Shown: positions 8,149 through 27,204 of the stretch, piece by piece
Numbering within the stretch: position 1 is the first letter of the stretch
Layout: each line of letters begins with the position of its first letter
Assembly: GCA_002335405.1 (NCBI GenBank)
Contig: DCWM01000056.1
Coordinates: 1 to 35,641, forward strand
Direction of reading: 5' to 3'
Origin: Dehalococcoidia bacterium UBA2162
GTDB lineage: Bacteria > Chloroflexota > Dehalococcoidia > Dehalococcoidales > UBA2162
DNA: 35,641 nt
Notes under the pieces: model-generated
Seen by the model: only the letters and a program-made list of their open reading frames with translations
Database searches by the model: none
Told to the model about the DNA's origin: nothing
Position numbers and translations under genes: made by a program

Positions 8149-9624
8149 GTGGTACAAAAGCTAGATCTTCTTTTGGTAAATCCGGGTAGTCGTTCTCAAG
8201 TATATGGCAAGCTTGCCTCCTCGCTTTCTGGTATTGAGCCGCCCATTTGGGCAGGATTGATTGCCGCCGTGGTTCGTCAGCAAGGTTTTTCGGTTAAGCT
8301 AATCGATGCCGAGGCGGAAAACTGGAGTCCGGAGTACACTGCTGAGAAAGTGGCCGAGGAGGATCCTTTCTTGACTGACATTGAGGTACTTGGTTCGAAC
8401 CCTTCGGCATCATCAACACCTAAAATGACGGCAGCGGGTGAAGTTGCTAGAGCCTTGAAGCATAAAGCACCACAGAGTAAGACGATTTTTAGTGGTCTTC
8501 ACCCATCGTCTCTTCCGCAACGGACCCTAAGAGAAGAAGCAGCTGATTTTGTTTGCCAGGGGGAGGGGTTTCATACTATTCCGCTCCTTTTAAAGGTACT
8601 TAAATCAAACTCCGACTTTAATTTGGGGCGAATCCCAGGTCTTTGGTATGCTGAGAAAGACCAGATAACTCCGATGGAGTCATGGGCACCACTGGTTAAT
8701 CCCGATGAGTTGCCGATGACGGCCTGGGATTTGTTGCCGATGGGTAGGTATCGGGCTCATAACTGGCATTGTTTCGATCGCATCGACCAGCGGCAGCCCT
8801 ATGCGGTTGTTTATACCAGCTTGGGTTGTCCTTTTAATTGTAGCTATTGTAATATCCATGCTATTTATGATGGTAAACCGGGTATACGTTTTCGTAGTCC
8901 GGAGAAGGTCGTTGAGGAAATAGACTTTTTAGTAAAAAACTACAAAGTGCGTAATATCAAGTTCCTCGATGAGTTGTTTGCTATTAACGAGGACCGTGTG
9001 ATGCGTATTTGTGACCTCATTATTCAGGGTGGTTATAATTTGAACATCTGGGCTTACGCTCGAGTGGATACGGTCAATGAAGGAATGCTAAGAAAAATGA
9101 AACAGGCTGGTATCAACTGGCTGGCATATGGGTTTGAGTCGGCTAGCGCTGAGGTTCGTCGAGGTGTATCCAAAAAATTCGAAGCGGATGTGGTCTCTAG
9201 GGTGGTGGCGATGACTCAGGCGGCTGGTATTTACATCATCGGTAATTTTATCTTCGGTCTGCCTGACGACGATCATGGAACGATGAGAGAGACACTCGAT
9301 ATGGCTAAAGAATTTAATTTTGAGTATGTAAATTTTTATACGGCAATGGCTTACCCCGGATCTCAGTTGTATGAGAATGCCGTTAAGCAAGGTGTTGCTT
9401 TACCGAAAGAGTGGTATGGGTATAGCCAATATGCCGAAGAAACTCTTCCCTTATCGACGAAGTACTTGTCTGCCGCCGAGGTATTGCGCTTTCGCGACAG
9501 GGCTTTTAAGGAATACTTCAGCAATCCGAGATATTTAGCTATGATTAAGGAAAAGTTTGGCTCGAAGGTAGTTGAGCATATCGAGGGGATGCTGAAACAC
9601 GAAATTCTTCGGAAGTTTGTTTAA
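8149..9624 (+). CDS. B12-binding-domain radical SAM enzyme (class B radical SAM)
   Basis: N-terminal Rossmann-like cobalamin-binding-type domain (LDLLLVNPG...IEPPIWAGLIAA...) followed by the CPFNCSYCN CxxxCxxC cluster motif at 8827-8853. GTG start lies 4 nt after the kinase stop. Confidence 0.8.
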   Translation: MVQKLDLLLVNPGSRSQVYGKLASSLSGIEPPIWAGLIAAVVRQQGFSVKLIDAEAENWSPEYTAEKVAEEDPFLTDIEVLGSNPSASSTPKMTAAGEVARALKHKAPQSKTIFSGLHPSSLPQRTLREEAADFVCQGEGFHTIPLLLKVLKSNSDFNLGRIPGLWYAEKDQITPMESWAPLVNPDELPMTAWDLLPMGRYRAHNWHCFDRIDQRQPYAVVYTSLGCPFNCSYCNIHAIYDGKPGIRFRSPEKVVEEIDFLVKNYKVRNIKFLDELFAINEDRVMRICDLIIQGGYNLNIWAYARVDTVNEGMLRKMKQAGINWLAYGFESASAEVRRGVSKKFEADVVSRVVAMTQAAGIYIIGNFIFGLPDDDHGTMRETLDMAKEFNFEYVNFYTAMAYPGSQLYENAVKQGVALPKEWYGYSQYAEETLPLSTKYLSAAEVLRFRDRAFKEYFSNPRYLAMIKEKFGSKVVEHIEGMLKHEILRKFV

Positions 9625-9645: not shown

Positions 9646-10764
9646 TTGCGAGTATCGTTCGGTGAATTAAGAATCGGTGCTTCCGCTCGGAAATATGTGC
9701 AGAGGGCTCTGGATAAGAGCTGGGTTTCGGAAGGAGCGAATGTTGCCGAATTTGAAGAAAAGTTCGCTAGTAAATTCGGTTATAAGCATGCCATCGCGAC
9801 CAGTTCCGGGACAGACGCCGATATTTGCAGTTGCGCTATGCTCTATAATTTTGGGGCGAGAAGAGGCGATGAGATTATTCTGCCGGCCGCATGCTTTGTG
9901 TCGTGTGCTAATTCTATTCTAGCTGCTGGGTTTGTACCTAAATTCGTTGATATTGAGCTAAAAACTCTGAATATCGACCCGAAGAAAATCGAAGCAGCGA
10001 TTACGGGTAAGACCAGAGCCATCATGGCGGTTCATACTATGGGTAAACCGTGTGAGATGGACTCGATTATAAAAATTGCACGGGCGCATAATCTAATAGT
10101 TATCGAGGATAGCTGTGAAGCTCACGGTGCCACTTACAAAGGTAAGGTGGTTGGTAATATGGGTGATATGGGTACTTTTAGTTTCTACCCGGCTCATGTC
10201 GTTGTCGCGGGCGAAGGTGGTATGGTAGTGACCGATAATGATGAGATTGACTGTGTAGTCCGTTCGGTTAAATCTCATGGTCGTCCCTTTGGCAGTAACT
10301 ATTTTGATTTTCAGCGTATCGGTTTTAATTCAAGGATGAATGAGCTGACTGCCGCCGTCGGTCTAGAAGGTTTAGAGCACTTCGATGAGACTTTCAACCA
10401 GCGTAAAGATAATTTTTATAAACTTCTGGAGCTAACCACAGATTTATCTGAGTATGTTTACTTACCTGAGGAAGAAAGCTACGAAAAATTGAGCCCTCAT
10501 GCTTTTTCGCTGGTTTTGAAAGATAAGAAATACGGCGGCACCAGATTCTGCAAATACCTGGAATCCAAAGGGATTCAATGTAAGACTTTGTTCGGTAGTT
10601 TACCGACTCAACATCAGGCCTTCGCGTTCATGAATCAAAAATACGGTCAGTTCCCGGTGTCCGAATATGTCGGAGAAAACGGTCTGCACTTTGGTATGCA
10701 CCAGTATTTAACTGATGATGATTTAGTCTTTGTTGGCGACACCCTGAAGGGTTATTTCAAATAG
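9646..10764 (+). CDS. DegT/DnrJ/EryC1/StrS-family PLP/PMP enzyme with His at the Schiff-base Lys position (ColD/E1-type sugar 3-dehydratase-like)
   Basis: Fold-type I sugar aminotransferase blocks are present (GDEIILPA, IEDSCEAHGA, FSFYPAHVVVAGEGG). In the SF...K....GEGG block the Lys is replaced by His184 (CAT at 10195-10197). TTG start follows GGAGG (9635-9639). Confidence 0.8.
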   Translation: MRVSFGELRIGASARKYVQRALDKSWVSEGANVAEFEEKFASKFGYKHAIATSSGTDADICSCAMLYNFGARRGDEIILPAACFVSCANSILAAGFVPKFVDIELKTLNIDPKKIEAAITGKTRAIMAVHTMGKPCEMDSIIKIARAHNLIVIEDSCEAHGATYKGKVVGNMGDMGTFSFYPAHVVVAGEGGMVVTDNDEIDCVVRSVKSHGRPFGSNYFDFQRIGFNSRMNELTAAVGLEGLEHFDETFNQRKDNFYKLLELTTDLSEYVYLPEEESYEKLSPHAFSLVLKDKKYGGTRFCKYLESKGIQCKTLFGSLPTQHQAFAFMNQKYGQFPVSEYVGENGLHFGMHQYLTDDDLVFVGDTLKGYFK

Positions 10765-10783: not shown

Positions 10784-12277
10784 TTGAATACTATCCAAAG
10801 AATCGCCAAGAACGTAGCCGTACTTACCATCGCTGAGATTACGACTGCGGTTATCGGTCTCTTCTTCATTATGTATGTTGCCCGCTATCTAGGGGCAGAG
10901 GGATTTGGTATTCTATCCTTTGCGCTGGCCTTTACTGCTATTTTTGGTGTATTTACCGATATTGGCTTAAACCCGCTAACGACAAGAGAGGTTGTTAGGA
11001 ATAAGGCCTTGGCCCCAAAATACTTAGGAAATATTACTGGCTTAAAAATAATCTTGACCACGGTTACCTTCGGGTTAATTGTCCTAGTAATAAACCTCTT
11101 AAGTTATCCAGACCAAACGAAAAACATCGTCTATCTTATCGCTCTATTTCTTGTTTTTAATGCTTTCAGTACGACGTTTTACTCAATCTTTCAGGCACAC
11201 GAGAGGATGGAGTTCGTCACCCTGGGGCGGATTTTCAATGGTGTTTTACTCTTAGCCGGAGCTTTATTTGCTGTCGGTCAAGGCTTGAGCATAGTCGTTC
11301 TTGCATCTGTGTATCTTCTGGCCAGCGCGATTACTTTAGTATTTAATGGTATTGTCTCAATCTGGAAATTTACTAAACCAAGGATAGAGATTGATTTTGG
11401 TTTTTGGAAAGAAACCATTAAGCAAGCGTGGCCTTTCGGCCTAGCTGGAGTCTTTACCGGCATCTACTTCTGGCTGGACTCGGTTATGCTTTCTTTTATG
11501 AAGGGAGATGAGGTGGTTGGCTGGTATAGTGCTGCCTACCGACTAGTTTTCGCTCTAACGGTTATTCCTGGTGTATATTTTACCTCTGTCTTTCCGGTCA
11601 TGTCCAGATATTATGTCACATCGAGAGAATCCTTGAGGCTTATCTATGAAAAATCCATTAAATACATGTTTATTCTTGCTGTTCCGATTGCTATTGGGAC
11701 AACTATTCTGGCAGATAAGGCGATAATGTTAATATTTGGTCTCGGATATTCCAATTCCATAATTGCTCTTCAAATACTCGTCTGGGCGGTGGCATTTTTC
11801 TTTATTGGTGCCGGTTTTGCACGGTTATTTGAGTCATCAAATAAGCAGGTAATAGTAACTATGGTAGCTGGAAGCTGTGCCTTGCTGAATGTAGTTCTAA
11901 ATCTAATCCTCATTCCGAAGTACAGCTATATAGGGGCGAGCATTGCTACGCTTGTGGCTGAGTTTGCTACTCTAGCTCTTCTCCTACTCTGGAGTTCTAA
12001 GATTGGGTATGGTATTTCCGGGAAAAAGCTTATAAATATCCTGACTAACACTCTGGCAGCCGGCCTCGTGATGTGTGGTTTTGTTTTTGTTTTGCAGGAT
12101 TTAACTGTATGGGCGCTGGTGCCACTATCAGCCTTACTCTACTTCATAGTGCTATTCATAATTAGAGGTATAGATGGAGAAGACATACTGTTACTTAAAC
12201 AGATGGTCCTCAAACAGCAAACCGAGACAGATATCACTGAAAAGGATAGTAAACCAAAGGATTTTACTGAAGGATAA
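10784..12277 (+). CDS. Wzx-like oligosaccharide flippase (MOP superfamily polysaccharide biosynthesis protein)
   Basis: 497-aa highly hydrophobic protein with many predicted TM segments. The N-terminus IAKNVAVLTIAEI... is typical of Wzx/RfbX-type flippases, and the gene sits in a glycan locus. Confidence 0.8.
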   Translation: MNTIQRIAKNVAVLTIAEITTAVIGLFFIMYVARYLGAEGFGILSFALAFTAIFGVFTDIGLNPLTTREVVRNKALAPKYLGNITGLKIILTTVTFGLIVLVINLLSYPDQTKNIVYLIALFLVFNAFSTTFYSIFQAHERMEFVTLGRIFNGVLLLAGALFAVGQGLSIVVLASVYLLASAITLVFNGIVSIWKFTKPRIEIDFGFWKETIKQAWPFGLAGVFTGIYFWLDSVMLSFMKGDEVVGWYSAAYRLVFALTVIPGVYFTSVFPVMSRYYVTSRESLRLIYEKSIKYMFILAVPIAIGTTILADKAIMLIFGLGYSNSIIALQILVWAVAFFFIGAGFARLFESSNKQVIVTMVAGSCALLNVVLNLILIPKYSYIGASIATLVAEFATLALLLLWSSKIGYGISGKKLINILTNTLAAGLVMCGFVFVLQDLTVWALVPLSALLYFIVLFIIRGIDGEDILLLKQMVLKQQTETDITEKDSKPKDFTEG

Positions 12278-12407
12278 GTACAATATAGTACCAGAAAAGA
12301 TGTATTGTCTTAGCTCCCGATAGCGGTGTATGGTCTTACATCAAGAGGAGAGACTCGCTTCTTCAAGCTAAGGTAGATTAGCGGCTTCGGTAAACAGGGA
12401 TATAGAT

Positions 12408-13316
12408 ATGAAAGATAACGTATTTCAACTTATAAGTCATGGTGAGAAGGAAGGTGTTGCCGATAAGCCATTGGTTAGCATTATTACCCCGGTTCTCAAC
12501 AGAGTTCAATATGTAGAGGAATGTATTCTGAATATATTCAATCAGACATACCCTAATATAGAGCATATCTTTGTTGATGGTAGTTCTACCGATGGTACGC
12601 TAGAAGTGTTATCCAGGTATCGAGCTAAAAACCCTGATCGAGTAAGGTATATTTCAGAATCTGATAATGGTTTAGGGGATGCGGTTAATAAAGGCTGGAG
12701 AATGGCGAAAGGAGAAATCTTAGGTTGGATTGATACAGGCGATACTTACGAGCTAGATGCTATTCAGGCAGTAGTAGATGCTTTTCGGACTTATCCAGAT
12801 GTCGGTGTTGTCTTTGGTGGTGGTCGCATGATAAATGATAATGGCGAATTTTTGAGAACATACATAACTAAGGACTTTAATTTAAAGGATACAATTAATG
12901 ATAGAAATCAGATGCATACGCCACCGTCAGCTTTTTATAGGCAAGGGGTTATCAGAGGAACAGACTGGTTATTACCTAACTCTGGGGATTCATTTGAACT
13001 GCACATAATGGCAGGAAAGTCATACAAAATACATCGAATTGATAAGTTAATATTTACTATAAGATTGCAAAGCGACAGCATAACCTACTCCAAAAGTGGT
13101 AGGGGATTGGTAAGGGAAAGTTTCCGGACTGGCTATCTTGTGTGCAGGAAGTATGGCGGTAGCATATTCGCGCCCCGCTGCAGAAGGTATTTTATCTTTA
13201 TGGTGCTGGACAGACTGCGGCTTTATGATTTCGTGGTTCTGGTAGTCTTAGTAAGACTACGACGTTATTCATTTATTAATAAACTGCTATCAAAACTAGG
13301 GATGGTTACTAATTGA
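12408..13316 (+). CDS. Family 2 glycosyltransferase (GT-A fold), paralogue 1
   Basis: PLVSIITPVLNRVQYVEECILNIFNQTYPNIEHIFVDGSSTDGT is a typical GT2 N-terminus. It contains the left copy of the 60-bp inverted repeat (residues 102-121). Confidence 0.85.
   Translation: MKDNVFQLISHGEKEGVADKPLVSIITPVLNRVQYVEECILNIFNQTYPNIEHIFVDGSSTDGTLEVLSRYRAKNPDRVRYISESDNGLGDAVNKGWRMAKGEILGWIDTGDTYELDAIQAVVDAFRTYPDVGVVFGGGRMINDNGEFLRTYITKDFNLKDTINDRNQMHTPPSAFYRQGVIRGTDWLLPNSGDSFELHIMAGKSYKIHRIDKLIFTIRLQSDSITYSKSGRGLVRESFRTGYLVCRKYGGSIFAPRCRRYFIFMVLDRLRLYDFVVLVVLVRLRRYSFINKLLSKLGMVTN
12711..12770. repeat. Left arm of the perfect 60-bp inverted repeat
   Basis: GGAGAAATCTTAGGTTGGATTGATACAGGCGATACTTACGAGCTAGATGCTATTCAGGCA is the exact reverse complement of 18711-18770. 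Identity ends abruptly at 12710 and 12771. Confidence 0.99.
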
Positions 13317-14218
13317 CGACTAGAAATAAACCATTGGTGAGTATCGTTACACCGGTTCTTAATGGTGTTAGATATTTGGAGGAATGTATTCAAAGTGTCT
13401 TGAACCAAAATTATCCTAACATCGAACATGTTTTTATCGATGGCGTTTCCACCGATGGGACTCTGGAGATGCTGGCTGACTACAAGGCAAAATATCCTGA
13501 CCGGATAAGGTTTATTTCGGAATCGGATAAGAGCGCCGGGGATGCATGGATTAAGGGCGTAAAAATAGCAAAAGGGGCGATTTTGGGTTGGTTGGGCGCA
13601 GATGATACCTATTGTCCGGATGCCATCCAGACGGTAGTAAAATTCTTTGAAACGAACCAGGATACCTATTTTATGTTCGGTGGCTGCAACTACATAAATG
13701 AAAGAGGTAAGCTAATTAAGCAAGTTGTAACCAAAGATTTTAATTTGGAGGAGGCAATCAACGATTCGTGCAGTATACCATGTACTTCGGCATTTTATAA
13801 ACAAGAAATAATCGAGAGGGTAAGTCCAGATATCATTGCGGAACAGGATAGCGAGCTAGAATATTGGATAATGGTTGGGGAGGTATTTAAGATTTACCGG
13901 ATTGACGATATACTTTCCAACTTTAGGTTATACAATGATAAAGCCCGCGCCCGTAATGACATATATAGTTTTGCACGCACGACTTTTATGATGGGAAGAC
14001 GACACGGAGCCGGTCTTTTTTCTCCTTGTGCGAGAAGATACTACATGGCTCTGGTAAGTCGCCCGTTACAGCCGCTTCTCGACCCCATTTTCCACTTTAT
14101 GAGTACTGGTGATACAGATAGGGGGGGCTTTTTGGTAAAGGTAACCCGCCCGCTCCATCCAATCTTAGGTTCCCTTTATCACTTTATAGTGGGCAGCAAA
14201 CCATCAGGGAAAAAATAA
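13313..14218 (+). CDS. Family 2 glycosyltransferase (GT-A fold), paralogue 2
   Basis: PLVSIVTPVLNGVRYLEECIQSVLNQNYPNIEHVFIDGVSTDGT is colinear with the upstream GT2. TTG start overlaps the upstream stop by 4 nt. Confidence 0.85.
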   Translation: MTTRNKPLVSIVTPVLNGVRYLEECIQSVLNQNYPNIEHVFIDGVSTDGTLEMLADYKAKYPDRIRFISESDKSAGDAWIKGVKIAKGAILGWLGADDTYCPDAIQTVVKFFETNQDTYFMFGGCNYINERGKLIKQVVTKDFNLEEAINDSCSIPCTSAFYKQEIIERVSPDIIAEQDSELEYWIMVGEVFKIYRIDDILSNFRLYNDKARARNDIYSFARTTFMMGRRHGAGLFSPCARRYYMALVSRPLQPLLDPIFHFMSTGDTDRGGFLVKVTRPLHPILGSLYHFIVGSKPSGKK

Positions 14219-14233
14219 GGGTTATCAAGTTAT

Positions 14234-14887
14234 TCATTCCTTCACTTTTATGACCTTTGCCGGTACTCCCACTGCGACTACCTTGGCGGGTATATCCTTA
14301 ATAACTACGGTACCCGCACCAACAGTAGTCCATTCTCCCACCGATACCTCGTGTATAAAGTTTGCACCTGTACCAACATAAACTCCTTCGCCCAGTTGGT
14401 CATTGCCATTTACTATTACCATAGGGAGTAATGAACAGTAGTTACCTATAATTGCATCATGCCCTATAGAGCAGTTTGCATTAATCTGAACATGGTTTCC
14501 CAGAACTATGTTTACTGTTAGTACTACTCCAGCACAGATAACAATATCTTCTCCTAGCTCCACAAATTCGGACATTATTACTGACGGATGTATAGCATTA
14601 TAGAATTTGATACCCATCGCTTGTAGTCTCTCAACTACTTGCTTTCGTATTTCACAATTACCTATGGCACAGATACAGCCCAGGTTGGTATTATTGTGTG
14701 CTTTTAGCCACTCTAATCCCCCAAGAACAGGATAACCATTCGTTTCCTTCCCGTGTAGTTTTTCGTTCTCATCAATAAACCCCAGAATATTCCAGACCAT
14801 GGATATTTGGTTCTGTGCTTTGAATATCTCCAAAACCTCTCTGCCAAAACCTCCGGCTCCTACGATGACTACTGAGTTCATTCCCAT
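14234..14887 (-). CDS. NeuD/PglD-family sugar N/O-acetyltransferase (left-handed beta-helix)
   Basis: N-terminal VVIVGAGGFGREVLEIF Rossmann-like domain followed by hexapeptide repeats (IGNYCSLLPMVIVNGNDQLGEGVYVGTGANF). Confidence 0.85.
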   Translation of the reverse strand: MGMNSVVIVGAGGFGREVLEIFKAQNQISMVWNILGFIDENEKLHGKETNGYPVLGGLEWLKAHNNTNLGCICAIGNCEIRKQVVERLQAMGIKFYNAIHPSVIMSEFVELGEDIVICAGVVLTVNIVLGNHVQINANCSIGHDAIIGNYCSLLPMVIVNGNDQLGEGVYVGTGANFIHEVSVGEWTTVGAGTVVIKDIPAKVVAVGVPAKVIKVKE

Positions 14888-14889
14888 AT

Positions 14890-16044
14890 TTAGTCTTCCT
14901 GTGCTGTACTTCCAGTAAAGAAATCTTGTATTTGCTCTACAATATAATCCATTTCTTCTCGAGTTAATGTGGCGTACATTGGTAATGTCAGAACTTCAGA
15001 TGCTATCTTTTCGGTCAAAGGCAAATGACCTTCTCGGTAGTCAAATTGCTGGCGGTAGAATTGCGTTAAGTGCACTGGGTTAAAATACACCCTAGACATG
15101 ACCCCATGCCTGGCTAAATATGCCTCAAGTTTGTCCCTGATACCTTCTCCCACATTCAGTCTGACGGTGTTTAGCTGATAGACATGAGTATAACCCTCCG
15201 GTATTTTAGAAACTCTAATCTCTTCTATCTCAGAAAGCCGGCTAGTGAGATACCTAGTATTTTCCCTTCTCATACGGATAATATCGTCTATTTTATCTAT
15301 CTGAGCTAATCCTAGAGCGGCAGTCATTGTGGACATCCTGAAGTTATATCCCAATGTTACATACTCCCCTGGCTTTGCTGAAGAAAAGTAATTGGTAGTG
15401 CCTGCTCTGCCTTGATTACTAATTAGTCTTGTTTTCTCGCATATTTCCTCAGAGTCTGTCAAAACCATACCACCTTCTCCTGTAGTGATTACCTTAGGGG
15501 CACAAAAACTCAGGATGGCAGAATCGCCGAAACTTCCGGTCTGCTTTCCGTTGACCGTAGCGCCAAGAGACTCGGCAGCATCTTCTAGTAGAACGAGGTT
15601 ATGCTTCTGGGCAATTTGTTTTAGTTTCTCGATATGGCATGGCAAGCCACCATAGTGGATAGGGATAATGGCTTTTGTCCTGGAGGTAATTTTCTTTTCT
15701 ACATCCTCTGGGTCAAGCCCATATGTTTCTTCTTCTATTTCAGCAAAGATAGGTTTAGCTCCAACAAAGAGAGGGGCATTAGCTGTGGCAATAAAAGTGA
15801 ATGATGGAACAATGACCTCATCTCCTGTTCCTATGCTATGTGCGGCGAGCGCAACATGTAAGGCGGAAGTACCGGAGTTTACCGCAATGGCATATCTCAC
15901 CCCAACATATTCACAGGTTCTTCTTTCGAATTCTGTAATCTCAGGTCCTATTGCCCAATAGTTCCCCTTTTCGATAACTGAGGTGACTTTCCTTACATCA
16001 TGTTCATCCCAGTATATTTTGAATAAGGGTATATTCCGAGTCAT
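14890..16044 (-). CDS. DegT/DnrJ/EryC1/StrS-family sugar aminotransferase (canonical Lys)
   Basis: AVNSGTSALHVAL, GDEVIVPSFTF, LLEDAAESLGA and LSFCAPKVITTGEGG blocks, with the Schiff-base Lys present. Confidence 0.9.
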   Translation of the reverse strand: MTRNIPLFKIYWDEHDVRKVTSVIEKGNYWAIGPEITEFERRTCEYVGVRYAIAVNSGTSALHVALAAHSIGTGDEVIVPSFTFIATANAPLFVGAKPIFAEIEEETYGLDPEDVEKKITSRTKAIIPIHYGGLPCHIEKLKQIAQKHNLVLLEDAAESLGATVNGKQTGSFGDSAILSFCAPKVITTGEGGMVLTDSEEICEKTRLISNQGRAGTTNYFSSAKPGEYVTLGYNFRMSTMTAALGLAQIDKIDDIIRMRRENTRYLTSRLSEIEEIRVSKIPEGYTHVYQLNTVRLNVGEGIRDKLEAYLARHGVMSRVYFNPVHLTQFYRQQFDYREGHLPLTEKIASEVLTLPMYATLTREEMDYIVEQIQDFFTGSTAQED

Positions 16045-16061
16045 TTCCCCTAAATCCTCTC

Positions 16062-17210
16062 TTATTTGTTCTGGGTTAAAGATTCATAAAGTTTCTCGTA
16101 TTTCTCGACTCCCGTTTGCCATGACAGGTTTGTCATTATATGTTGTCTCGTTTTCTGCGTTTTATTTCTTATGTCGGTGGGGTCATCGAGGATCTTTTGC
16201 ATTAAATCCATTAAGGCGGGTATATTACCATATTCTACTAAATACCCGCCATCTAGTTTACTTACAATTTCACCAGCGCCGGTATCTTTAGTGATTATGA
16301 CTGGAGTACCGGATAGGATTGCCTCAAAAGGGGAACCTGGCCCCCGCTCATACGTAGAGGTCTGAACTAGCATAACGGCATCTACGAGGGCAGATAGTTT
16401 ATCCATCCCGCTTAATAATCCCGTAAAGAGTACCTTTCCCGATAAACCTAATCTGTTGATTAGTTCTTCTAAGGTAGATTTATAACCCTGGTCAGGGCCT
16501 ACTATTGCCAGGATAATGTCTTCTCTTTGCTGTCTTAATTGGTGAAATGACTCAACTAAGAACCTAATCCCTTTTATTTGATGTATTCTACCCAAGAATA
16601 AAATTATATATTTCTCCTTAATGTTAAATTTGCGTCGGAATTGTCCTAAAGGTGGAAGTTGAGAAAATTCTTCAATGTTGTAGAAGGGAGGAATCAAAAC
16701 AATCTCAGGTTGCTTTATCCCCATTTCTTTATATTCACCAACTTCTGATTCAGTACCAGCAATGACTTTACTCGCTTTTCTTAATATTCTATAGCCAAAG
16801 AGCGTATCGAAGGTTCTTTTTAGATGCTGCTTTTGAAAAATAGGTAATACTCCACCATGAGCCTGCAAAATATAAGGCACACCGTATCTTGTGGCGTAAT
16901 ACTGAACTATTATATTTTGGAAGGTTCTATAGTTGTTCATGTGAATAGTATCGAAATATCTAATTTCTTCCTTTGCCCGCTTTATTATACCTGGCGTAAC
17001 TAAGAAATTGGCCAGACTCAGCCAAGTTTTGAAAGTATGAACCTTGACTTCAGGGATGGAACTTATGTATTTCTGACTTAGTTTGAAGTCGCTGGTATAA
17101 AGTGTGACTTCATGCCCCTTTTTGACCAGTTGATTTGTTAGTTGATACGTAGCTTCAGCTATACCACCGTGTACTGGCGCGAAAAGATTAGTCACTTGCA
17201 AAATTTTCAT
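16062..17210 (-). CDS. GT-B fold glycosyltransferase (GT4 / group 1 family)
   Basis: MKILQVTNLFAPVHGGIAE N-terminus and C-terminal E(x7)E-type region (YERGPGSPFEAILSGTPVI) are typical of GT4 enzymes. Confidence 0.85.
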   Translation of the reverse strand: MKILQVTNLFAPVHGGIAEATYQLTNQLVKKGHEVTLYTSDFKLSQKYISSIPEVKVHTFKTWLSLANFLVTPGIIKRAKEEIRYFDTIHMNNYRTFQNIIVQYYATRYGVPYILQAHGGVLPIFQKQHLKRTFDTLFGYRILRKASKVIAGTESEVGEYKEMGIKQPEIVLIPPFYNIEEFSQLPPLGQFRRKFNIKEKYIILFLGRIHQIKGIRFLVESFHQLRQQREDIILAIVGPDQGYKSTLEELINRLGLSGKVLFTGLLSGMDKLSALVDAVMLVQTSTYERGPGSPFEAILSGTPVIITKDTGAGEIVSKLDGGYLVEYGNIPALMDLMQKILDDPTDIRNKTQKTRQHIMTNLSWQTGVEKYEKLYESLTQNK

Positions 17211-18289
17211 TTATTACGATACCCAAGGAGTATTTTAACTACCTTGGATGATACATTTGTGACCAAATACTCCGCCGGCGGCGTCCATTCACGTGTTTCA
17301 TTTAGCACAACCTCTAGTGAGTTTAATATTAAATCTGGCGAAACACCGACAAGCATATTACTACCACTTTCTATAGTTTCAGGTCTCTCGGTTACATCTC
17401 TGATGGTAATATTAGGTACCTTGAAGATGCAGCATTCTTCCTGAACTGTGCCGCTGTCGGTGATAACACAGCGCGCGTTTTTTTCCAGGGAAATAAAATC
17501 GAAGAAGCCGAAGGGCTCGAGGAGATGGACGTTTTTGTTATTGATTTTCGGCCCGAATCGCTCTATCCTGTTTTTTGCCCTGGGGTGCAAACTAACGATG
17601 ACGGGGAGGGCGTATTTCTTGCTTATTTTATCTAGGGCTAGAAGCAGATTCGTCAGTCTCTCTTTGTGGTCAACGTTCTCGGCACGGTGCATAGTGACGA
17701 GGAAGTATTGACCGGCGGTTAACTTAAGAGTCGTTAGGATGGTAGATTGACAAATCTGCCGGTCATAGTGCTGGATTACTTCGTAGATGGGATTCCCCGT
17801 TACATAGATACGTTCGCCAGGGATACCTTCTTGTAGCAGGTTAGCCCGACTGCGCTCAGTGTAGGGTAGGAGCACATCGCTGCAGTGGTCGATAATACGT
17901 CGGTTAACTTCCTCCGGTACGCGGTCGTCGTAGCATCGATTACCAGCCTCCATGTGGTACACCGGGATGCCCAGCCGTTTTGCCATAATGGCGGCGAGAC
18001 TGCTGTTTGTGTCGCCCAGTACGAGGAACCGCTCCGGGGTTTCCGTTAGCATGATGGGCTCACTTTGTGCCAGAATCGTTCCGATTTGCTCACCGAAGTT
18101 ACCCCTAGCTCCCAGGTAGTGGTTAGGCTCTCGTACGCCCATCTGCTGGAAAAAAATTTTGTCCAGGTTGTAGTCATAGTTTTGTCCGGTATGAACCAAG
18201 ATTTGTTCACACAACGTATCTAGTTTTTCGATGATACGACTCAGGCGAATTATCTCCGGGCGTGTGCCCAGAACTGTCATAATCTTCAC
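17207..18289 (-). CDS. wecB: UDP-N-acetylglucosamine 2-epimerase family (non-hydrolysing WecB/FnlC type)
   Basis: KIMTVLGTRPEIIRLS, VLGDTNS, HMEAGNR and VTGNP blocks. I chose GTG 18289 because it follows AGGAGA with a 5-nt spacer and lies 17 nt after the upstream stop. The ORF-track start at 18331 would overlap the upstream gene. Confidence 0.85.
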   Translation of the reverse strand: MKIMTVLGTRPEIIRLSRIIEKLDTLCEQILVHTGQNYDYNLDKIFFQQMGVREPNHYLGARGNFGEQIGTILAQSEPIMLTETPERFLVLGDTNSSLAAIMAKRLGIPVYHMEAGNRCYDDRVPEEVNRRIIDHCSDVLLPYTERSRANLLQEGIPGERIYVTGNPIYEVIQHYDRQICQSTILTTLKLTAGQYFLVTMHRAENVDHKERLTNLLLALDKISKKYALPVIVSLHPRAKNRIERFGPKINNKNVHLLEPFGFFDFISLEKNARCVITDSGTVQEECCIFKVPNITIRDVTERPETIESGSNMLVGVSPDLILNSLEVVLNETREWTPPAEYLVTNVSSKVVKILLGYRNK

Positions 18290-18305
18290 GTATCTCTCCT
18301 CTTGC

Positions 18306-19289
18306 TCAGAGTCTACCAAGCTTATAATCAAAGCAAGCTAGTTCGGCAATCATCTCTGGTATTGAGAGTGGTTGCGAATAGCCGGCGGCTGCCCACAAGG
18401 CTTGATTCGATGGCTTGCTGGTCGTTTTTAGGGTTCGGTCAATGATAACGGTGGCCTTACCCGGCGTAATCGATATGTCTTCCCGTCGGAAATACTGGGC
18501 AAAACATTGGAGTAATTCGTATTTGGTGACTTCTCCAGCGGGCACAATATGTTGCCAATGGGGCAGATCAATATTTTGAGTAATAATGCCATGGCAGAGT
18601 TTGGCAAAATGGAGTGTGGTCACACCATTCCAACGGTGATTTATGTAGCCACTTACCGTAGTATTCTGTGGCTGACCCAAAAACCAAGCGAGTAAGAATT
18701 TGTGTTCTTTTGCCTGAATAGCATCTAGCTCGTAAGTATCGCCTGTATCAATCCAACCTAAGATTTCTCCCGGCTCGGGACCAATGATAGAACAGCGTAA
18801 GTGATGGACCTGGGGATGTGTGATTTCGCCCAGGCTCTTGGTCTTGCCGTAGGTGTCAAGGGCATCATGCGGGTCGCTTTCGAGATAGCCACCCCTACTT
18901 CCTGAATATACACAGTCGGTAGCAATCTGGATTACCTTTGCCTCGCTCTTGTGGGCTTGCTGCGCGATCTGATGAGGTAATAACGAGTTTATGAGAAGTG
19001 CCTGTTTAACTTCGGCGGCGTTATTGTCATGAATGAGTGGTTTGGTAATGCCGATGGCATTGATTACCCAGTCGTAGCCGTGAATAACACTCAGCGTTTC
19101 CCGTAACGTAGGTGAGTTAGCGTCAAAAGATAGCCAGTTTACCCCATGAAGTCGCTCTTGGTATTTTGTCGCCAGCACTTGAGTTCGGACCGTTGCGGCG
19201 ACTTCTAAAGTCGGATCGTTGGACAGATAATCCACGACCATAGAGCCCAGCATTCCCGAACCGCCGAGAACAATCACTTTCTTAGACAC
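18306..19289 (-). CDS. RmlD-like SDR (dTDP-4-dehydrorhamnose reductase family / nucleotide-sugar 4-reductase) carrying a 20-codon GT2-derived segment
   Basis: KVIVLGGSGMLGS Rossmann motif, YGKTK (YxxxK) and LRCSIIGPE...FLLAWFLGQ...WNGVTT blocks. GTG 19289 lies 25 nt after the upstream stop and follows GAGGT. Residues encoded by 18770-18711 are identical to GT2 residues 102-121. Confidence 0.75.
   Translation of the reverse strand: MSKKVIVLGGSGMLGSMVVDYLSNDPTLEVAATVRTQVLATKYQERLHGVNWLSFDANSPTLRETLSVIHGYDWVINAIGITKPLIHDNNAAEVKQALLINSLLPHQIAQQAHKSEAKVIQIATDCVYSGSRGGYLESDPHDALDTYGKTKSLGEITHPQVHHLRCSIIGPEPGEILGWIDTGDTYELDAIQAKEHKFLLAWFLGQPQNTTVSGYINHRWNGVTTLHFAKLCHGIITQNIDLPHWQHIVPAGEVTKYELLQCFAQYFRREDISITPGKATVIIDRTLKTTSKPSNQALWAAAGYSQPLSIPEMIAELACFDYKLGRL
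18711..18770. repeat. Right arm of the perfect 60-bp inverted repeat
   Basis: Exact reverse complement of 12711-12770. It is read in frame on the minus strand as GEILGWIDTGDTYELDAIQA. Confidence 0.99.
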
Positions 19290-19314
19290 TCTACCTCGCT
19301 GTCTTTCTGGTAAT

Positions 19315-19779
19315 CTAACGCTCGATGACCTGCCAGATATCCCAGTAATGGGCATCATAACGTACATCATCGCCGCGAGATTCTTCGAGCGTTGACGTCG
19401 AGAAAAAGACCAGAATCGTGCCTTCCACCAGCGTCATAAAGCCATTAGCATAGCCTGCCGGGATGTAAACGGCGGATGGTTTATTTGCCGACAGAATATA
19501 GCGGTCCACTTGGCTATTGTGAGACGGTTTTACCCAATCGTCAATCTTAACGGCTCCGATTATGGCCGCACCTCGCGAAACAGTGATGTACTTGGCTTCG
19601 AAGCGATGGGCGTGCCACGCACGAACGAAGCCAGTCTGGTGGTTGGTCACTGTATAGAAGCGTTTTATGCCACTGAAATTGAAATCGTTGATAAAACCGA
19701 CAGTTCCTCGGTCATCGACTGCCGATCCACCCTCAATGAGTCGTACGACATCTTGTCTCTTTTTATTTTGAGATGGCAT
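19315..19779 (-). CDS. RmlC-like cupin (nucleotide-sugar epimerase/ketoisomerase family)
   Basis: 154-aa protein with DDRGTVGFINDF...FVRAWHAH...KYITVSRGAAIIGAVKID, a pattern typical of small sugar-nucleotide cupin epimerases. Its exact activity (3,5-epimerase versus 3,4-ketoisomerase) is not determinable. Confidence 0.7.
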   Translation of the reverse strand: MPSQNKKRQDVVRLIEGGSAVDDRGTVGFINDFNFSGIKRFYTVTNHQTGFVRAWHAHRFEAKYITVSRGAAIIGAVKIDDWVKPSHNSQVDRYILSANKPSAVYIPAGYANGFMTLVEGTILVFFSTSTLEESRGDDVRYDAHYWDIWQVIER

Positions 19780-19780
19780 A

Positions 19781-20728
19781 TTACTTCTCCCGGATATGCG
19801 AATTGGAAATCGAAAGGAACTTTTGATTGGTATATCGGGGGTTGTCTACATCCTTCAACCGTCCGTAATCCAGGAGCGCCTTGATTTCCTCTATTCCTTC
19901 GTCAATCGAACGTGCCGGATTGAACGCTAATATGGTCTTAGCCTTGTCGCTACTTACTCGGTAGTTACGCGTGTCTTCGAATTTCCGCTCTTGCTGTTCA
20001 ATGACCAGATCAGGGAAATGACCGCGTACTTGATAGGCTAGGTCGATAATACGGATGTTTTGGTTGTGTAGGTTGAAGATACCAGTATGCTCAGTGACTA
20101 TGTTATCCACAATAGTCTGGGCGGCATCGCGTACGTGGAGTAATGGTCGGAACTGATCACCTCCGTAAACCTGAAGTTTGCCGGATTGATGTGCTTTTAC
20201 GGCGAGGGTGTTCACCACTAGGTCAAGTCGGATGCGGGAAAATAAGTCACCAACACCAAAGAGGGTACCGAGACGGAAAATGAGAGCATTGCTACCGGCT
20301 AAGTGGTGTTCGGCTTCTAATTTGGTGACGGCGTAAACTGAGAGTGGGTTAGTTGGTGCTGTTTCATCTAGAACACCGTCTCTGGCGCCATACACCGAGC
20401 AAGTAGATAGGAAAAATATACGGCCCTCAAAATTTTGCGCCAGCCACTTAATTGTTTCTTGGTTGATGTCGATGCTTACGTCTGGATTAAGAGCACAAGC
20501 TGCATCGCCGACGAGCGCTGCTAACCATATTACCACCTCAGCCCAATCCAGATGTGGCTTCAGTCTCTCTCGGTCACGCACATCTCCATAGACAAAATCT
20601 ACTGGCTTGCGGTAAGCTTCTTCGTAGAACAGCGCGTCATACACACGGATGTGGTGCTGACTCTGCAGTAGTAAATCCGTGACGGCTCCGCCTACATAAC
20701 CAGCCCCGCCAACTAGCAGGACCTTCAT
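19781..20728 (-). CDS. NAD-dependent epimerase/dehydratase family SDR
   Basis: MKVLLVGGAGYVGG Rossmann motif, STCSVYG and YAVTK (YxxxK). It is the first gene of the minus-strand string. Confidence 0.8.
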   Translation of the reverse strand: MKVLLVGGAGYVGGAVTDLLLQSQHHIRVYDALFYEEAYRKPVDFVYGDVRDRERLKPHLDWAEVVIWLAALVGDAACALNPDVSIDINQETIKWLAQNFEGRIFFLSTCSVYGARDGVLDETAPTNPLSVYAVTKLEAEHHLAGSNALIFRLGTLFGVGDLFSRIRLDLVVNTLAVKAHQSGKLQVYGGDQFRPLLHVRDAAQTIVDNIVTEHTGIFNLHNQNIRIIDLAYQVRGHFPDLVIEQQERKFEDTRNYRVSSDKAKTILAFNPARSIDEGIEEIKALLDYGRLKDVDNPRYTNQKFLSISNSHIREK

Positions 20729-20800
20729 AAAAAATTCTCCCTATCGGTAATAGTCTCCAGTTTCAACTTTCCCCAAAGTCAATAGAATCTTTCTTGCTAT

Positions 20801-20829
20801 ATCTTATCTTGTTACCTGTCCGTAGTCAA
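20801..20829 (-). promoter_or_regulatory. Candidate sigma70-type promoter for the minus-strand glycan operon
   Basis: On the minus strand: TTGACT (20829-20824), 17-nt spacer, TAAGAT (20806-20801). It lies about 70 nt upstream of the ATG at 20728. Pattern match only. Confidence 0.3.
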
Positions 20830-20863
20830 TTCCATCATGGGCGGTACTGTTCTGACGGTTGGC

Positions 20864-21490
20864 TTATTGTCTTTGTCGTTTTGGATATTGGTAGAGGTAG
20901 TAGCCGATAAGTACAATGACTAGAGTAATAATGATTGGGTCAAAGGGGCGCATCACAGTGCGTATTTGTTCCCAGTGTTCGCCCAGTTGGTAGCCGGCGT
21001 AGGCTAATCCGGTACACCAGATAAAAGAGCCAGTAAAGGTATAGATGAGAAATTTAAGAGGGTGCATTCGGGCAATTCCGGCGGGGAGACTGATAAGACT
21101 GCGGACCACCGGTAGCAGGCGGCAAATAAAGACTGCCCAGCTGCCTCTCTTCGCGAACCACTGGTCAGCTTGAGTCAGGTCAGAGCGAGAGATGAGGACA
21201 TACTTACCGTATTTCTCTAGAAGAGGGCGGCCGCCCCACACGCAGGTAATGTAGATAAGAATGGCCCCGATGGTAGAGCCCAAAGCTCCATAGCCACCAG
21301 CGACTAAAATATACGATATTGGCAGAGCCCTTTCTTTTATCAACATCCAGCCGGCAAGAGGCATCACTATTTCGCTGGGTAGGGGGACAAAGATAGTCTC
21401 GGTAGCCATGAGTGCTACGACTCCGGGCCATTGCATTGAGATGTAGATATTCTCGATGAAGTCGATGACGGCTTGTTCCGGCAACCCCAC
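20864..21490 (-). CDS. DedA-family (VTT/SNARE-associated domain) membrane protein
   Basis: ETIFVPLPSEIVMPLAGW, the ...R.LPVVRSLISLPAGIARM... block and multiple TM segments are typical of DedA. GTG start at 21490. Confidence 0.85.
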   Translation of the reverse strand: MGLPEQAVIDFIENIYISMQWPGVVALMATETIFVPLPSEIVMPLAGWMLIKERALPISYILVAGGYGALGSTIGAILIYITCVWGGRPLLEKYGKYVLISRSDLTQADQWFAKRGSWAVFICRLLPVVRSLISLPAGIARMHPLKFLIYTFTGSFIWCTGLAYAGYQLGEHWEQIRTVMRPFDPIIITLVIVLIGYYLYQYPKRQRQ

Positions 21491-21542
21491 TTTGGCAGTC
21501 TAACAAACGGGAGTAGTCGCGTCAAGCCACAACAAGTAAATC

Positions 21543-21570
21543 TTGTCTTCTACCGTACGGATAGCTATAA
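21543..21570 (+). promoter_or_regulatory. Candidate promoter giving a leaderless or near-leaderless GT2 transcript
   Basis: TTGTCT (21543-21548), 16-nt spacer, consensus TATAAT (21565-21570). The GT2 ATG at 21578 begins only 7 nt after the -10 box, and there is no SD in between. Confidence 0.3.
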
Positions 21571-21577
21571 TGTGATT

Positions 21578-22450
21578 ATGAAAATAATCGCGGCTATGCC
21601 TGCCTACAATGAAGCGAATTACATCGGTAGCGTGGTTTTGCAGGTCCGGCAGTATGCCGATGAAGTTATTGTCGCCGATGATGGCAGTAGGGATCGGACG
21701 GCTAAGATTGCTGAGCTTGCCGGGGCTACTGTTATCAGACATGAGCGAAACAAAGGCAAAGGGGCGGCTATCCGGAGTATACTAGCTGAAGTGCGGAAAA
21801 GGAATGCTGATATACTTGTGCTTCTGGATGCTGATTCCCAACACGATCCCGAAGAAATACCATTTTTTATCCGGGCAGTCTCCGAAGGTTCTGACCTCGT
21901 TATCGGTTCTAGAAAGATCGGGAGGCATAATGTTCCTCTTTACCGTAAAGTCGGGCAAAAAGTCCTATCATATTTAACCGGTGTCCTCTCGGAAGCAAAA
22001 GTTTCGGACACCGAATCCGGGTTTAGAGGGCTATCTAAGAAGGCGATATCCGTGATGCAATTTAAGGAGAGCGGATTCGCCATAGAAGCCGAGATGATAT
22101 CTGAGGCTACGTCCAAGGGGCTCAAGATTGTGGAAGTCCCAATATCAGCCATATACACGAAAGACGGTTCAACACTGAACCCGATAAGGCATGGCTTCGG
22201 TAATCTCAACCGAATAATGGTGCTGATTTCGGAGAGAAAGCCCATGCTATTCTTTGGGTTGCTTGGCAGTATTTTGATAGTACTTGGAATCATTCCCGGT
22301 ACCATAGTAGTCAAGACGTATTCCTCTTCGGGTGTGTTGCCTATGGGGACAGTACTAGTATTAATTCTCCTCATTACTATTGGGATACTGAGTGTCTCTA
22401 CGGGGATAATCTTAGGTGTGCTCGCAAAGCGGATTGGCAACCACTTATGA
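21578..22450 (+). CDS. Polyprenyl-phosphate glycosyltransferase (GT2; GtrB/DPM1/ArnC-like)
   Basis: MKIIAAMPAYNEANYIGSVV..DDGSRDRT..LDADSQHDPEEIP GT2 catalytic domain, followed by two C-terminal TM helices (MLFFGLLGSILIVLGIIPG and VLVLILLITIGILSVSTGIILGVL). This is the GtrB-type architecture. The ORF-track start at 21473 overlaps dedA and adds non-conserved residues. Confidence 0.85.
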   Translation: MKIIAAMPAYNEANYIGSVVLQVRQYADEVIVADDGSRDRTAKIAELAGATVIRHERNKGKGAAIRSILAEVRKRNADILVLLDADSQHDPEEIPFFIRAVSEGSDLVIGSRKIGRHNVPLYRKVGQKVLSYLTGVLSEAKVSDTESGFRGLSKKAISVMQFKESGFAIEAEMISEATSKGLKIVEVPISAIYTKDGSTLNPIRHGFGNLNRIMVLISERKPMLFFGLLGSILIVLGIIPGTIVVKTYSSSGVLPMGTVLVLILLITIGILSVSTGIILGVLAKRIGNHL

Positions 22451-22676
22451 TTTCGGTTGTCTCGACGAGTTGGGACTACCATGGTGTTTTGTAAATTGTT
22501 TACAGCCTGCCAAAGACGGTCTGTCACAAATCGGACATCCAAAGCGATAGACCGCGGATGCTCATTTGATAGGGGTGGGTATGGGTAAAGAGTGGTTCAT
22601 GTTGCTATATGGTAATTACACTAAATACATGGGTAGGACATAATGGTACTCAGCACTAGTTCTTGGGGCTAAATAT

Positions 22677-23339
22677 ATGTTGAATGGGCTACCACAACCC
22701 AAGAAAGCCTTAGGGGTCATACAGATTAATGAGAGACCCCTATTCCCAGTTAGTTGGTTATATAAGCAGGAGTATTGTGAATACCAAATCTACCTGGAGA
22801 ATATAGCTGGGATCAAAGTTAAACCCACCAAGCAAATGGTAGCAGGTAAGCAGGCACATGAGAACCTCTACCAAGGATTTAAGAAGGAAGCTGTCCCAGT
22901 TTCCTTTGACGGGATGCTTCTTGAGTCAAAGAAAGTTCAAATCTTTAGTCGGGAGTTATCGGTGAAGGACTTGGGGCATGGTATCTATGGTTTTATCGAT
23001 GAAGTCTTGATGACCCCTGAGACCTTTGTCGTCATAGATGATAAACCTGGTACTAAAACATACTTATCCAGTATAAATCAAGTGTTTGGTTATTGCTTAG
23101 CCTTCCAATCTGTAGTGGCACAGGATAATAGGCCGGTGGTGGCCGCATTACGTGAGAGAGGTACCGATAATATGTACTGGAGAGTGCCTTTTGATCTAGA
23201 GGCTGCAGGGTATATAACTGCCTTGATTGAACGTATTCATTTACTGCTTGTGGGAGAGTTGGAGTTTAATTCTTCCGATAACCCAAACAAGTGCCGTGCT
23301 TGCAGATTTAGAGAACGATGTGACCGTCTATGCTTATAG
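22677..23339 (+). CDS. Cas4-like PD-(D/E)XK nuclease with a 4-Cys Fe-S cluster motif (DUF83/RecB-family), stand-alone
   Basis: N-terminal Cys34 (YCEYQIYLE) and nuclease motifs GFID108...VVID121-D-K123. Q135-x3-Y139 (QVFGY) is also present. The C-terminal CRACRFRERC (C206-x2-C209-x5-C215, nt 23292-23321) completes the Cas4 signature set. Confidence 0.8.
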   Translation: MLNGLPQPKKALGVIQINERPLFPVSWLYKQEYCEYQIYLENIAGIKVKPTKQMVAGKQAHENLYQGFKKEAVPVSFDGMLLESKKVQIFSRELSVKDLGHGIYGFIDEVLMTPETFVVIDDKPGTKTYLSSINQVFGYCLAFQSVVAQDNRPVVAALRERGTDNMYWRVPFDLEAAGYITALIERIHLLLVGELEFNSSDNPNKCRACRFRERCDRLCL

Positions 23340-23552
23340 CACGTTAGGGTGGTACATGTGGGTGGTTCTATGGTTCTACTGACAAAATTTGGTAAGTCAA
23401 CGGCTCAGAGACCACAGACAGGAGTACAATAATGCTACTGAAACAATTAAGGATTGACTGGCGCACTTCAAGCTGTATAGGCGATACAGACAGATGGTTT
23501 GGGATGTTTATACCAGAACGGATTTTAGCTATCTGCTATAATGAGGTGAATT

Positions 23553-23936
23553 ATGGAAAACTTACTCAAATTATTCGAGGGTAGACTAGGTAGACTACAT
23601 TACTTCCTAGGGGTTATTTTTATTGAAGGAGTTTCGGCACTCATTTTGACTATTGCTCCTAGTATAGTTTTGTCTCTATTGCTTACTGCCTTGACTCTAC
23701 CAATAGCGGTTAGACGTATTCACGATATTGGTTTTCCAGGCTTTTGGGCAGTCGGAAGATTCTTAAGTTATTTCAGTTATTTTGGAGGAATTTATATTGC
23801 TATCGCTCTAGTCTTCGATTTATGTTTGTATATTATAAGAGGTACTCAGGGAGTAAATAAATATGGCGAGGCACCAAAGCCTGGACTTGGATTTATAGAT
23901 GCAATCTTGAACAAAACAGAAGCATCTGATGGATAG
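23553..23936 (+). CDS. DUF805-family small inner-membrane protein
   Basis: GRLGRLHYFLG, three TM segments, RRIHDIGFPGFW and the C-terminal NKYGEAP motif are typical of DUF805 (YhaH/YhaI-like). ATG follows GAGGTG. Confidence 0.8.
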   Translation: MENLLKLFEGRLGRLHYFLGVIFIEGVSALILTIAPSIVLSLLLTALTLPIAVRRIHDIGFPGFWAVGRFLSYFSYFGGIYIAIALVFDLCLYIIRGTQGVNKYGEAPKPGLGFIDAILNKTEASDG

Positions 23937-24220
23937 TGATATAGAGTAGAATCAGTACCTTAGGTGTAATGTCGGTTATTCTTGGGATGGAGTTCTGCGG
24001 TAGTTACGGAATTAGGCTAGGTTGGTTATCGGCCGCAGTGGTTTGGGCATAAATTTACCCAAGAGACATCAGCTCTTGTGGTGGAGTAAAAAGTCCGGGT
24101 ACATTGTAACGTTGCTAATCGGACGCTACGGATGGTATCTTCCTTAACGGTTATTCGGGGCATAAACACTTATTAATAATTTAGTTGGAAATAGTTTGTA
24201 ACCAGTTTGCGGTTGAATTG

Positions 24221-24297
24221 TGGCGTCCCTGGAGAGATTCGAACTCTCGACCCACTGCTTAGAAGGCAGTTGCTCTGTCCGGCTGAGCTACAGGGAC
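24221..24297 (-). tRNA. tRNA-Arg (anticodon TCT), CCA encoded
   Basis: The reverse complement folds as a cloverleaf. Acceptor stem GTCCCTG/CAGGGAC; D arm GCTC-AGCCGGACA-GAGC. Anticodon arm ACTGC-CTTCTAA-GCAGT; variable loop GGGTC. T arm GAGAG-TTCGAAT-CTCTC; discriminator G; CCA. Total 77 nt. Confidence 0.95.
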
Positions 24298-24314
24298 AAT
24301 TGGTGACTTATCCT

Positions 24315-24344
24315 AATTTAGCATGAGCCAGAATGTAGGGTCAA
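24315..24344 (-). promoter_or_regulatory. Candidate promoter for tRNA-Arg
   Basis: On the minus strand: TTGACC (24344-24339), 18-nt spacer, TAAATT (24320-24315). It lies about 17 nt upstream of the mature tRNA 5' end. Pattern match only. Confidence 0.25.
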
Positions 24345-24383
24345 CCCCGATACCAACGCTTTGTTATTCTCTAACCTTGCTGG

Positions 24384-24412
24384 TTGTCGTGGGTTAGATG
24401 TTGTGCTATACT
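24384..24412 (+). promoter_or_regulatory. Candidate promoter for the rpsB-tsf operon
   Basis: TTGTCG (24384-24389), 17-nt spacer, TATACT (24407-24412) with an extended -10 TG (24404-24405). It lies about 50 nt upstream of the rpsB start. Pattern match only. Confidence 0.3.
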
Positions 24413-24462
24413 CTCTGCAGTCGGTCAATCCCGATGGCATAGGAGAAAGGGGGGCGTGAACT

Positions 24463-25341: not shown

Positions 25342-25381
25342 GGTGAATAATCCAGACTTTCCTCGGGACCAGGGAGACAAG

Positions 25382-25888: not shown

Positions 25889-25909
25889 GTCGCGGGGAGA
25901 ATGCACTAA

Positions 25910-26641
<732 letters not shown>

Positions 26642-26645
26642 TAAG

Positions 26646-27203: not shown

Positions 27204-27204
27204 G

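Follow-up and report, generated by a model that had tools for sequence, protein, structure and literature searches.

The inverted repeat and its two host genes

The window analysed here is a 35,641-nucleotide stretch of DNA from Dehalococcoidia bacterium UBA2162 (GenBank assembly GCA_002335405.1, contig DCWM01000056.1, positions 1 to 35,641, forward strand). It carries a surface glycan gene cluster in which two convergent, unrelated genes contain the same 60-bp sequence, forming a perfect inverted repeat whose origin is the subject of this report. The first is a GT2 glycosyltransferase gene (12408..13316, + strand), an open reading frame (ORF) of 302 aa with a match to Pfam PF00535, for which the exact protein is present in public collections. 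The second is an RmlD-like sugar-nucleotide reductase gene (18306..19289, − strand, 327-aa form), an ORF with matches to Pfam PF04321 and PF01370. As detailed below, GT2 is the donor of the sequence and the reductase gene its acceptor.

The left or donor arm (12711..12770, + strand) is native GT2 coding sequence for residues 102-121, and the right or inserted arm (18711..18770, − strand) lies in frame in the reductase gene, between the Pro codon of an IIGPEP motif and the Lys codon of a KE motif. The arms are reverse complements at 60 of 60 positions, and both encode GEILGWIDTGDTYELDAIQA. Identity ends sharply on both sides, with a/g at 12710 and g/a at 12771. The start-to-start spacing is exactly 6000 bp, enclosing an interior of 5940 bp (12771..18710) that, according to its ORFs and Pfam families, contains the 3' part of GT2, five complete genes (from a GT2 paralogue to an Epimerase_2/WecB-like gene) and the 3' part of the reductase gene. 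Recomputation reproduced the repeat, its abrupt ends and its spacing as given in a preliminary description of this DNA, and the ORF translations agree with the 20 in-frame residues reported there for both genes.

The 60-bp pair is the sole long inverted repeat of the window. A shuffled-window control gave no match in 100 shuffles, even when 3 mismatches were allowed, and a search of the window and the fetched loci found only two copies of the 60-mer.

The right arm is an insertion copied from GT2

The 20-residue block is conserved in all 13 aligned GT2 orthologues and paralogues (consensus GEILGWIDVGDTYKPDAVQA), and the left arm is therefore native to GT2. In the reductase, the same 20 residues form an insertion that falls precisely between IIGPEP and KE, both of them conserved, corresponding to residues 201-220 of the longest ORF (18306-19370, − strand) and 174-193 of the 327-aa form. 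The insert is missing from each of the 35 reductase homologues compared, which have no residues of any kind at that site. The homologue cluster nearest to the reductase (P0002 and P0143; 307 aa) comes from a sister lineage, represented by the contigs L010 and L012, that has ~96-97% nucleotide identity to the window. In both contigs the site is intact, reading GAGCCG^AAAGAA and encoding GGTCCCGAGCCG^AAAGAACAC, and the 60-bp gap is the sole large indel in 21 kb of window aligned to the sister lineage. The preliminary description had proposed a search of related loci for the alternative orientation; the sister contigs instead have the same gene order as the window, without the right arm.

The sister lineage also dates the copy. 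The GT2 gene of L012 carries a homologous 60-bp sequence with three differences, at 12713, 12745 and 12759, whereas the reductase insert is identical to the window's own GT2 allele at 60 of 60 positions. The copy was thus made from the resident GT2 after the lineages split, and the event is recent. In the sister lineage, the distance from the donor start to the empty reductase site is likewise 6000 bp, so the round values 60 and 6000 are a coincidence.

We interpret the inverted repeat as a recent templated insertion, in which 60 bp of GT2 were copied in inverted orientation into the reductase gene, and thus as a mutation scar and not a programmed switch, with a probability of roughly 0.75. 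Our analysis establishes that the insertion took place, that GT2 was its donor, that it is recent and has spread in the population, and that the window encodes no recombinase. A recent relic of illegitimate recombination had been listed in the preliminary description as an alternative to a switch, and the empty sister site and native GT2 donor support it.

The reductase with the insert

The reductase gene is free of stops and frameshifts, and 20 synonymous and 17 non-synonymous codons distinguish it from the sister gene, counts which, judged from sequence, do not form a pseudogene pattern. A PDB sequence search with the reductase gave no match at E 1e-5 or better, and an AlphaFold2 model was used for placement of the insert in place of a solved structure. 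The insert-bearing reductase was predicted with a confident fold (predicted template modelling score 0.85), in which the insert residues (173-194) form a loop with a predicted local distance difference test score (pLDDT) <50. The enzyme probably tolerates the 20-aa insert.

The start of the reductase gene differs among gene callers. Alternative called starts lie at 19250 and 19370, and public members of the cluster have 315, 327 or 354 aa. Homologues begin at MSKKVIVLGGSG, favouring a GTG start at 19289, and the 315-aa call omits the glycine-rich NAD(P)-binding motif.

The shared reading frame would follow from survival of the insert. Stop codons interrupt five of the six frames of the 60-mer, and the GT2 frame alone is open. 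A gene that has to stay translatable can therefore keep the sequence only if it is in sense orientation and in the same phase, and because the two genes are convergent, being sense in both means being inverted in the genome. The inverted copy would accordingly read in the GT2 sense within the reductase. The surviving version would add a 20-residue loop after the conserved GPEP motif and leave the reductase and its downstream genes translatable. Selection would have acted here as a filter on the frame of the insert, and not as design.

Occurrence in public assemblies

Both arms were found exact and 6000 bp apart in six independent public contigs (L001-L006; ENA, JGI and NCBI), comprising ENA MEGAHIT contigs assembled with k119 and k127, contigs from two JGI metagenomes and the NCBI metagenome-assembled genome (MAG) GCA_030746675.1. 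The six represent three haplotypes, with 100%, 99.67% and 99.2% identity to the window. The mid-interval GT4 protein is encoded on at least 23 public contigs, and for the insert-bearing reductase cluster ~26 contigs are listed, with JGI, NCBI, ENA and Tara as sources. Among the homologues and public contigs compared, the insert is confined to these three haplotypes, all with at least 99.2% identity, and nothing points to long-term maintenance of the repeat. The MAG GCA_030751715.1 lacks the insert.

A further line of evidence comes from the Logan assembly, which uses k=31. A k=31 unitig flanked by a perfect repeat should stop exactly there, and the Logan contig L019/L025 (SRR5322086_89), found in three samples, is exactly 6000 bp long and corresponds to window positions 12741-18740, so that it covers the interior and extends 30 nt into each arm. 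Since such a unitig is expected to end inside a perfect repeat, the contig is independent read-level evidence for both arms. An early TARA contig (L024; NCBI CEPV01084228.1) begins 47 nt inside the right arm. The ends of the Logan and TARA contigs inside the arms look like repeat-induced ends of short-k assemblies.

The repeat is natural, and not an artefact of the window. Assembly chimerism, or engineering or planting of the sequence, had been raised in the preliminary description, and the exact values of 60 and 6000 and the placement at codon boundaries might seem to favour it. The same arms and spacing nevertheless recur across samples and assemblers (MEGAHIT k119/k127, TARA scaffolds, JGI, the NCBI MAG) in three haplotypes; the insert-bearing protein is found in JGI, NCBI, ENA and Tara; and in three samples the Logan contig stops 30 nt into each arm. 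L001-L006 and the Logan contig refute an artefactual repeat, whose probability we regard as negligible.

Orientation of the bracketed segment

According to the preliminary description, inversion between the arms would generate two in-frame chimeric genes and exchange the distal halves of the two operons with no gene misoriented. The geometry of both predictions is correct. The two chimeras were built and looked up by exact sequence in a public protein collection. Chimera A, consisting of GT2(1-121) and the C-terminal 134 aa of the reductase (255 aa in total), was found as P0121 on one contig. This contig, L011 (ENA ERZ840530, NODE_40358_length_1106_cov_2.27878), has 1106 bp, in which window positions 12275-12770 are joined to the reverse complement of 18770-18101, giving the inverted junction J1.

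The reciprocal junction J2, which would encode chimera B, was sought in five variants by exact look-up, and none was present in the public protein collection. A homology search with the junction peptides identified P0121 as the sole chimeric protein, and no protein of the J2 type. Look-ups of the GT2-paralogue and WecB-like proteins, which would acquire new neighbours after inversion, returned native arrangements only. All arm-spanning contigs assembled with k>=119, and the long scaffolds, are in the native orientation. Fragments of the GT2 protein in its cluster do not break at the arm, and only short-k contigs end in the arms. The search of public contigs for the inverted orientation thus yielded J1 in L011, with J2 not found and the other contigs native. 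Scans of a JGI metagenome contig collection for J1 and for the 60-mer itself gave 0 hits, as did genome-collection scans with a 31-mer common to both lineages and with the protein P0138; JGI and NCBI contigs with the locus are known from another index, and these negative scans therefore carry no weight for either orientation.

L011 is a SPAdes contig by its name, with a k-mer coverage of 2.3. By default, the largest k in SPAdes is 55, too short to span the 60-bp repeat. At such low coverage, the true continuation may contain a gap, and the assembler can then be left with no path out of the repeat but the wrong one, which makes a misjoin plausible. We judge L011 to be probably a repeat-induced misjoin; that it represents a real inversion variant appears improbable.

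Origin of the insert and alternative explanations

The templated insertion would have involved a single recent mutation, in one lineage of uncultured marine Dehalococcoidales, that copied 60 bp of GT2. This mutation would have placed the copy, inverted relative to the donor, in the RmlD-like reductase gene, which belongs to the convergent operon of the glycan cluster and lies 6 kb from GT2. As a mutational mechanism we infer either a template switch to the opposite strand during replication or repair, or capture of a copied fragment at a break. The perfect inverted repeat would then be a by-product, and at most a low-frequency substrate for homologous (RecA-type) inversion.

Several observations weigh against this interpretation. 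Microhomology amounts to 0 nt at both junctions, leaving a template switch without a direct signature; a CGAAAG hexamer does span both the acceptor site and the left boundary of the donor, but its register does not yield the product. The coincidence of the round numbers 60 and 6000 comes without an explanation. The non-synonymous count of the reductase relative to the sister lineage is the highest of six compared genes, and its enzymatic function is a prediction from sequence. Finally, L011 matches the inverted junction J1 at 100% identity.

The last of these would be explained by an inversion polymorphism, in which the 60-bp arms already mediate, by chance and with no dedicated recombinase, a homologous inversion of the 5.9-kb segment in nature. 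The result would be GT2-reductase chimeras, rewired operons and loss or change of the glycan, and such a polymorphism is compatible with an origin by insertion. The exact 255-aa chimera P0121 in the public protein collection and the J1 match of L011 argue for it, and, at 60 bp, the arms are longer than the minimum commonly cited for RecA-dependent recombination in E. coli. Against this, the chimera comes from a single contig of one sample at a SPAdes coverage of 2.3, J2 was recovered neither by the five-variant look-up nor by the junction-peptide search, and all other contigs are native, with breaks at the arms only in short-k contigs. We therefore consider the polymorphism unlikely. Less likely again is a recombinase-independent flip-flop newly born from a chance insertion, with reversible inversion in part of the natural population and L011 as its first trace. 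Inversion would almost certainly be a double knockout, fusing half of the GT-A domain of the glycosyltransferase with the C-terminal part of a short-chain dehydrogenase/reductase (SDR) and vice versa.

The switch favoured in the preliminary description, similar to an inverton or shufflon, would toggle the glycan cluster between two wiring states by means of a site-specific recombinase whose gene lies elsewhere in the genome. The geometry fits such a system, as the arms are coding and in frame, the operons converge and a flip would misorient no gene; the locus makes a surface glycan, a usual target of phase variation, and one contig has the J1 junction. The right arm is, however, a recent insertion that is missing in the sister lineage, and one orientation dominates all well-covered assemblies. 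The 35.6 kb encode no recombinase. The arms themselves consist of ordinary coding sequence in which no recombinase-site sub-structure is apparent, although no formal test was made. Known gene-altering inversions exchange homologous domains, whereas here half a GT-A domain and the C-terminal part of a reductase, which have unrelated folds, would be exchanged. Together with the failure to find J2, these observations speak against the claim, and we regard a programmed switch as very unlikely.

Two classes of mobile sequence were also examined and rejected. A transposable element, such as a miniature inverted-repeat transposable element, is ruled out because inspection of the junctions revealed no target-site duplication at CCG|AAA and no terminal structure, only two copies are present, and the sequence is plain GT2 coding sequence. 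A diversity-generating retroelement is contradicted by the absence of a reverse transcriptase from the window and by the identity of the two copies.

Comparison with known systems

By origin, the insert fits best among templated, template-switch insertions. Like events of the fork stalling and template switching (FoSTeS) or microhomology-mediated break-induced replication (MMBIR) type, and like short-range template switching (e.g. PMC7954356), it is a short stretch copied from a nearby locus on the same chromosome. Such insertions are often inverted, occupy a new site without target duplication and are absent in close relatives, as is the case here; both the empty site in close relatives and an identical native donor were found. 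The differences are that the donor lies 6 kb away, as opposed to tens to hundreds of bp in short-range template switching, that the junctions are blunt and lack microhomology, and that this insert is in a bacterium, where it has become fixed in the lineage and lengthens a conserved enzyme by 20 aa in frame. The event is a tidy natural example of a kind of mutation that is already known, unusual in these three respects.

The arms also resemble those of gene-altering inversions, 'partial intergenic invertons' and shufflons (Chanin et al., bioRxiv 10.1101/2023.03.11.532203; Milman et al. 2023, to the extent that it is cited there) in that inverted repeats lie inside coding sequence, and, as with partial intergenic invertons, inversion would exchange the 3' parts of genes in frame at a surface-glycan locus. 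The domains exchanged by known gene-altering inversions are homologous alternatives (bioRxiv 10.1101/2023.03.11.532203). Of the features that characterise these systems, a pair of inverted repeats flanking a segment is present at this locus, whereas a nearby recombinase and conserved repeats or homologous segments are absent. The 35.6-kb window lacks any recombinase; the parts exchanged would be non-homologous, a GT-A glycosyltransferase and an extended SDR; the repeat is confined to one lineage, the sister at ~96.5% identity being without the right arm; and one J1 contig stands beside no J2 contig and otherwise native contigs.

Inversions between dispersed repeats such as rrn operons or insertion sequence (IS) copies, which are RecA-dependent, likewise use a perfect inverted repeat as a substrate for reciprocal exchange. 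In contrast to these, the arms here are only 60 bp long, for which very low rates are expected, and consist of unique coding sequence and not of a repeated element. A short coding sequence occurring twice nearby, with one copy inside a target gene, is also reminiscent of a diversity-generating retroelement, from which the locus differs in having no reverse transcriptase, no adenine-specific differences, and a copy in the middle of an enzyme instead of in a C-terminal variable domain.

Implications

The locus would offer a clean and dated case of an inverted, templated micro-insertion in a marine bacterium that is abundant and uncultured, with donor, empty site and product all obtained from public data. 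It illustrates how selection can give a random event a designed look, in the form of the same frame in two unrelated genes, and how inverted repeats that could later drive operon-scale inversions may arise. It also carries a warning for assembly-based surveys, since an assembler faced with a perfect repeat slightly longer than its k-mer can produce a contig, and with it a database protein, resembling the product of phase variation. If L011 is a misjoin, the 255-aa P0121 is a false fusion protein in public protein collections.

If L011 were real, the repeat would be in use for inversion in nature, and the locus would capture the origin of an invertible element at its earliest step. In the case of a flip-flop, cells would carry a GT2-reductase fusion and swapped distal halves of two glycan operons, an inverton caught at birth.

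Gene cluster, haplotypes and neighbouring genes

The ORFs and Pfam families agree with the gene content and convergent operon layout of the preliminary description. The + side of the cluster comprises a wzx-like Polysacc_synt gene, GT2 and the GT2 paralogue (13313-14218, +; ORF and Pfam). On the − side, Pfam identifies an epimerase, an RmlC-like cupin, the RmlD-like reductase, Epimerase_2, GT4, a DegT aminotransferase and a PglD-like acetyltransferase. Those lying between the arms, each called from its ORF and Pfam match, are the PglD-like acetyltransferase (14234-14887, −), the DegT aminotransferase (14890-16044, −), GT4 (16062-17210, −) and the Epimerase_2/WecB-like gene (17207-18289, −). 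No gene of the 35.6-kb window has a Pfam match to a recombinase, transposase or reverse transcriptase family, in accord with the earlier observation that the window holds no invertase. The flanks are housekeeping in character, with an H+-pyrophosphatase, an E1 dehydrogenase, rpsB-tsf-pyrH-frr, shikimate pathway genes and others.

The haplotypes of this region (L002, L003, L004, L008 and L009) are almost identical to the window across the glycan cluster (12400-23000), with ~1-4 differences per kb between 13 and 23 kb. In the adjoining DUF805-rpsB-tsf region (23000-27250), they diverge sharply, with up to 96 differences per kb, and there they are also unlike the sister contig L012. The pattern of sequence divergence suggests that recombination or a gene-specific sweep may have moved the insert-bearing cluster allele between backgrounds. 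Between haplotypes, ~30 single-nucleotide polymorphisms (SNPs) and one 1-bp indel cluster at 11500-12411, covering the 3' end of the wzx-like gene and the wzx-GT2 intergenic region; directly downstream of this cluster, GT2 itself is otherwise invariant.

Two weaker repeats in the window reflect paralogy. The tandem GT2 genes share a 142-nt direct repeat (12463-12604 / 13326-13467) of 73% identity, and two DegT-type aminotransferases share a 38-nt inverted match (10210-10247 / 15443-15480) of 76%. A stand-alone Cas4/PD-(D/E)XK-like gene (22677-23339, +) adjoins the glycan cluster, with no CRISPR or cas context. Encoded within the cluster are a B12-binding radical SAM enzyme and a GHMP kinase (8149-9624, +), which hints at an unusual modified sugar.

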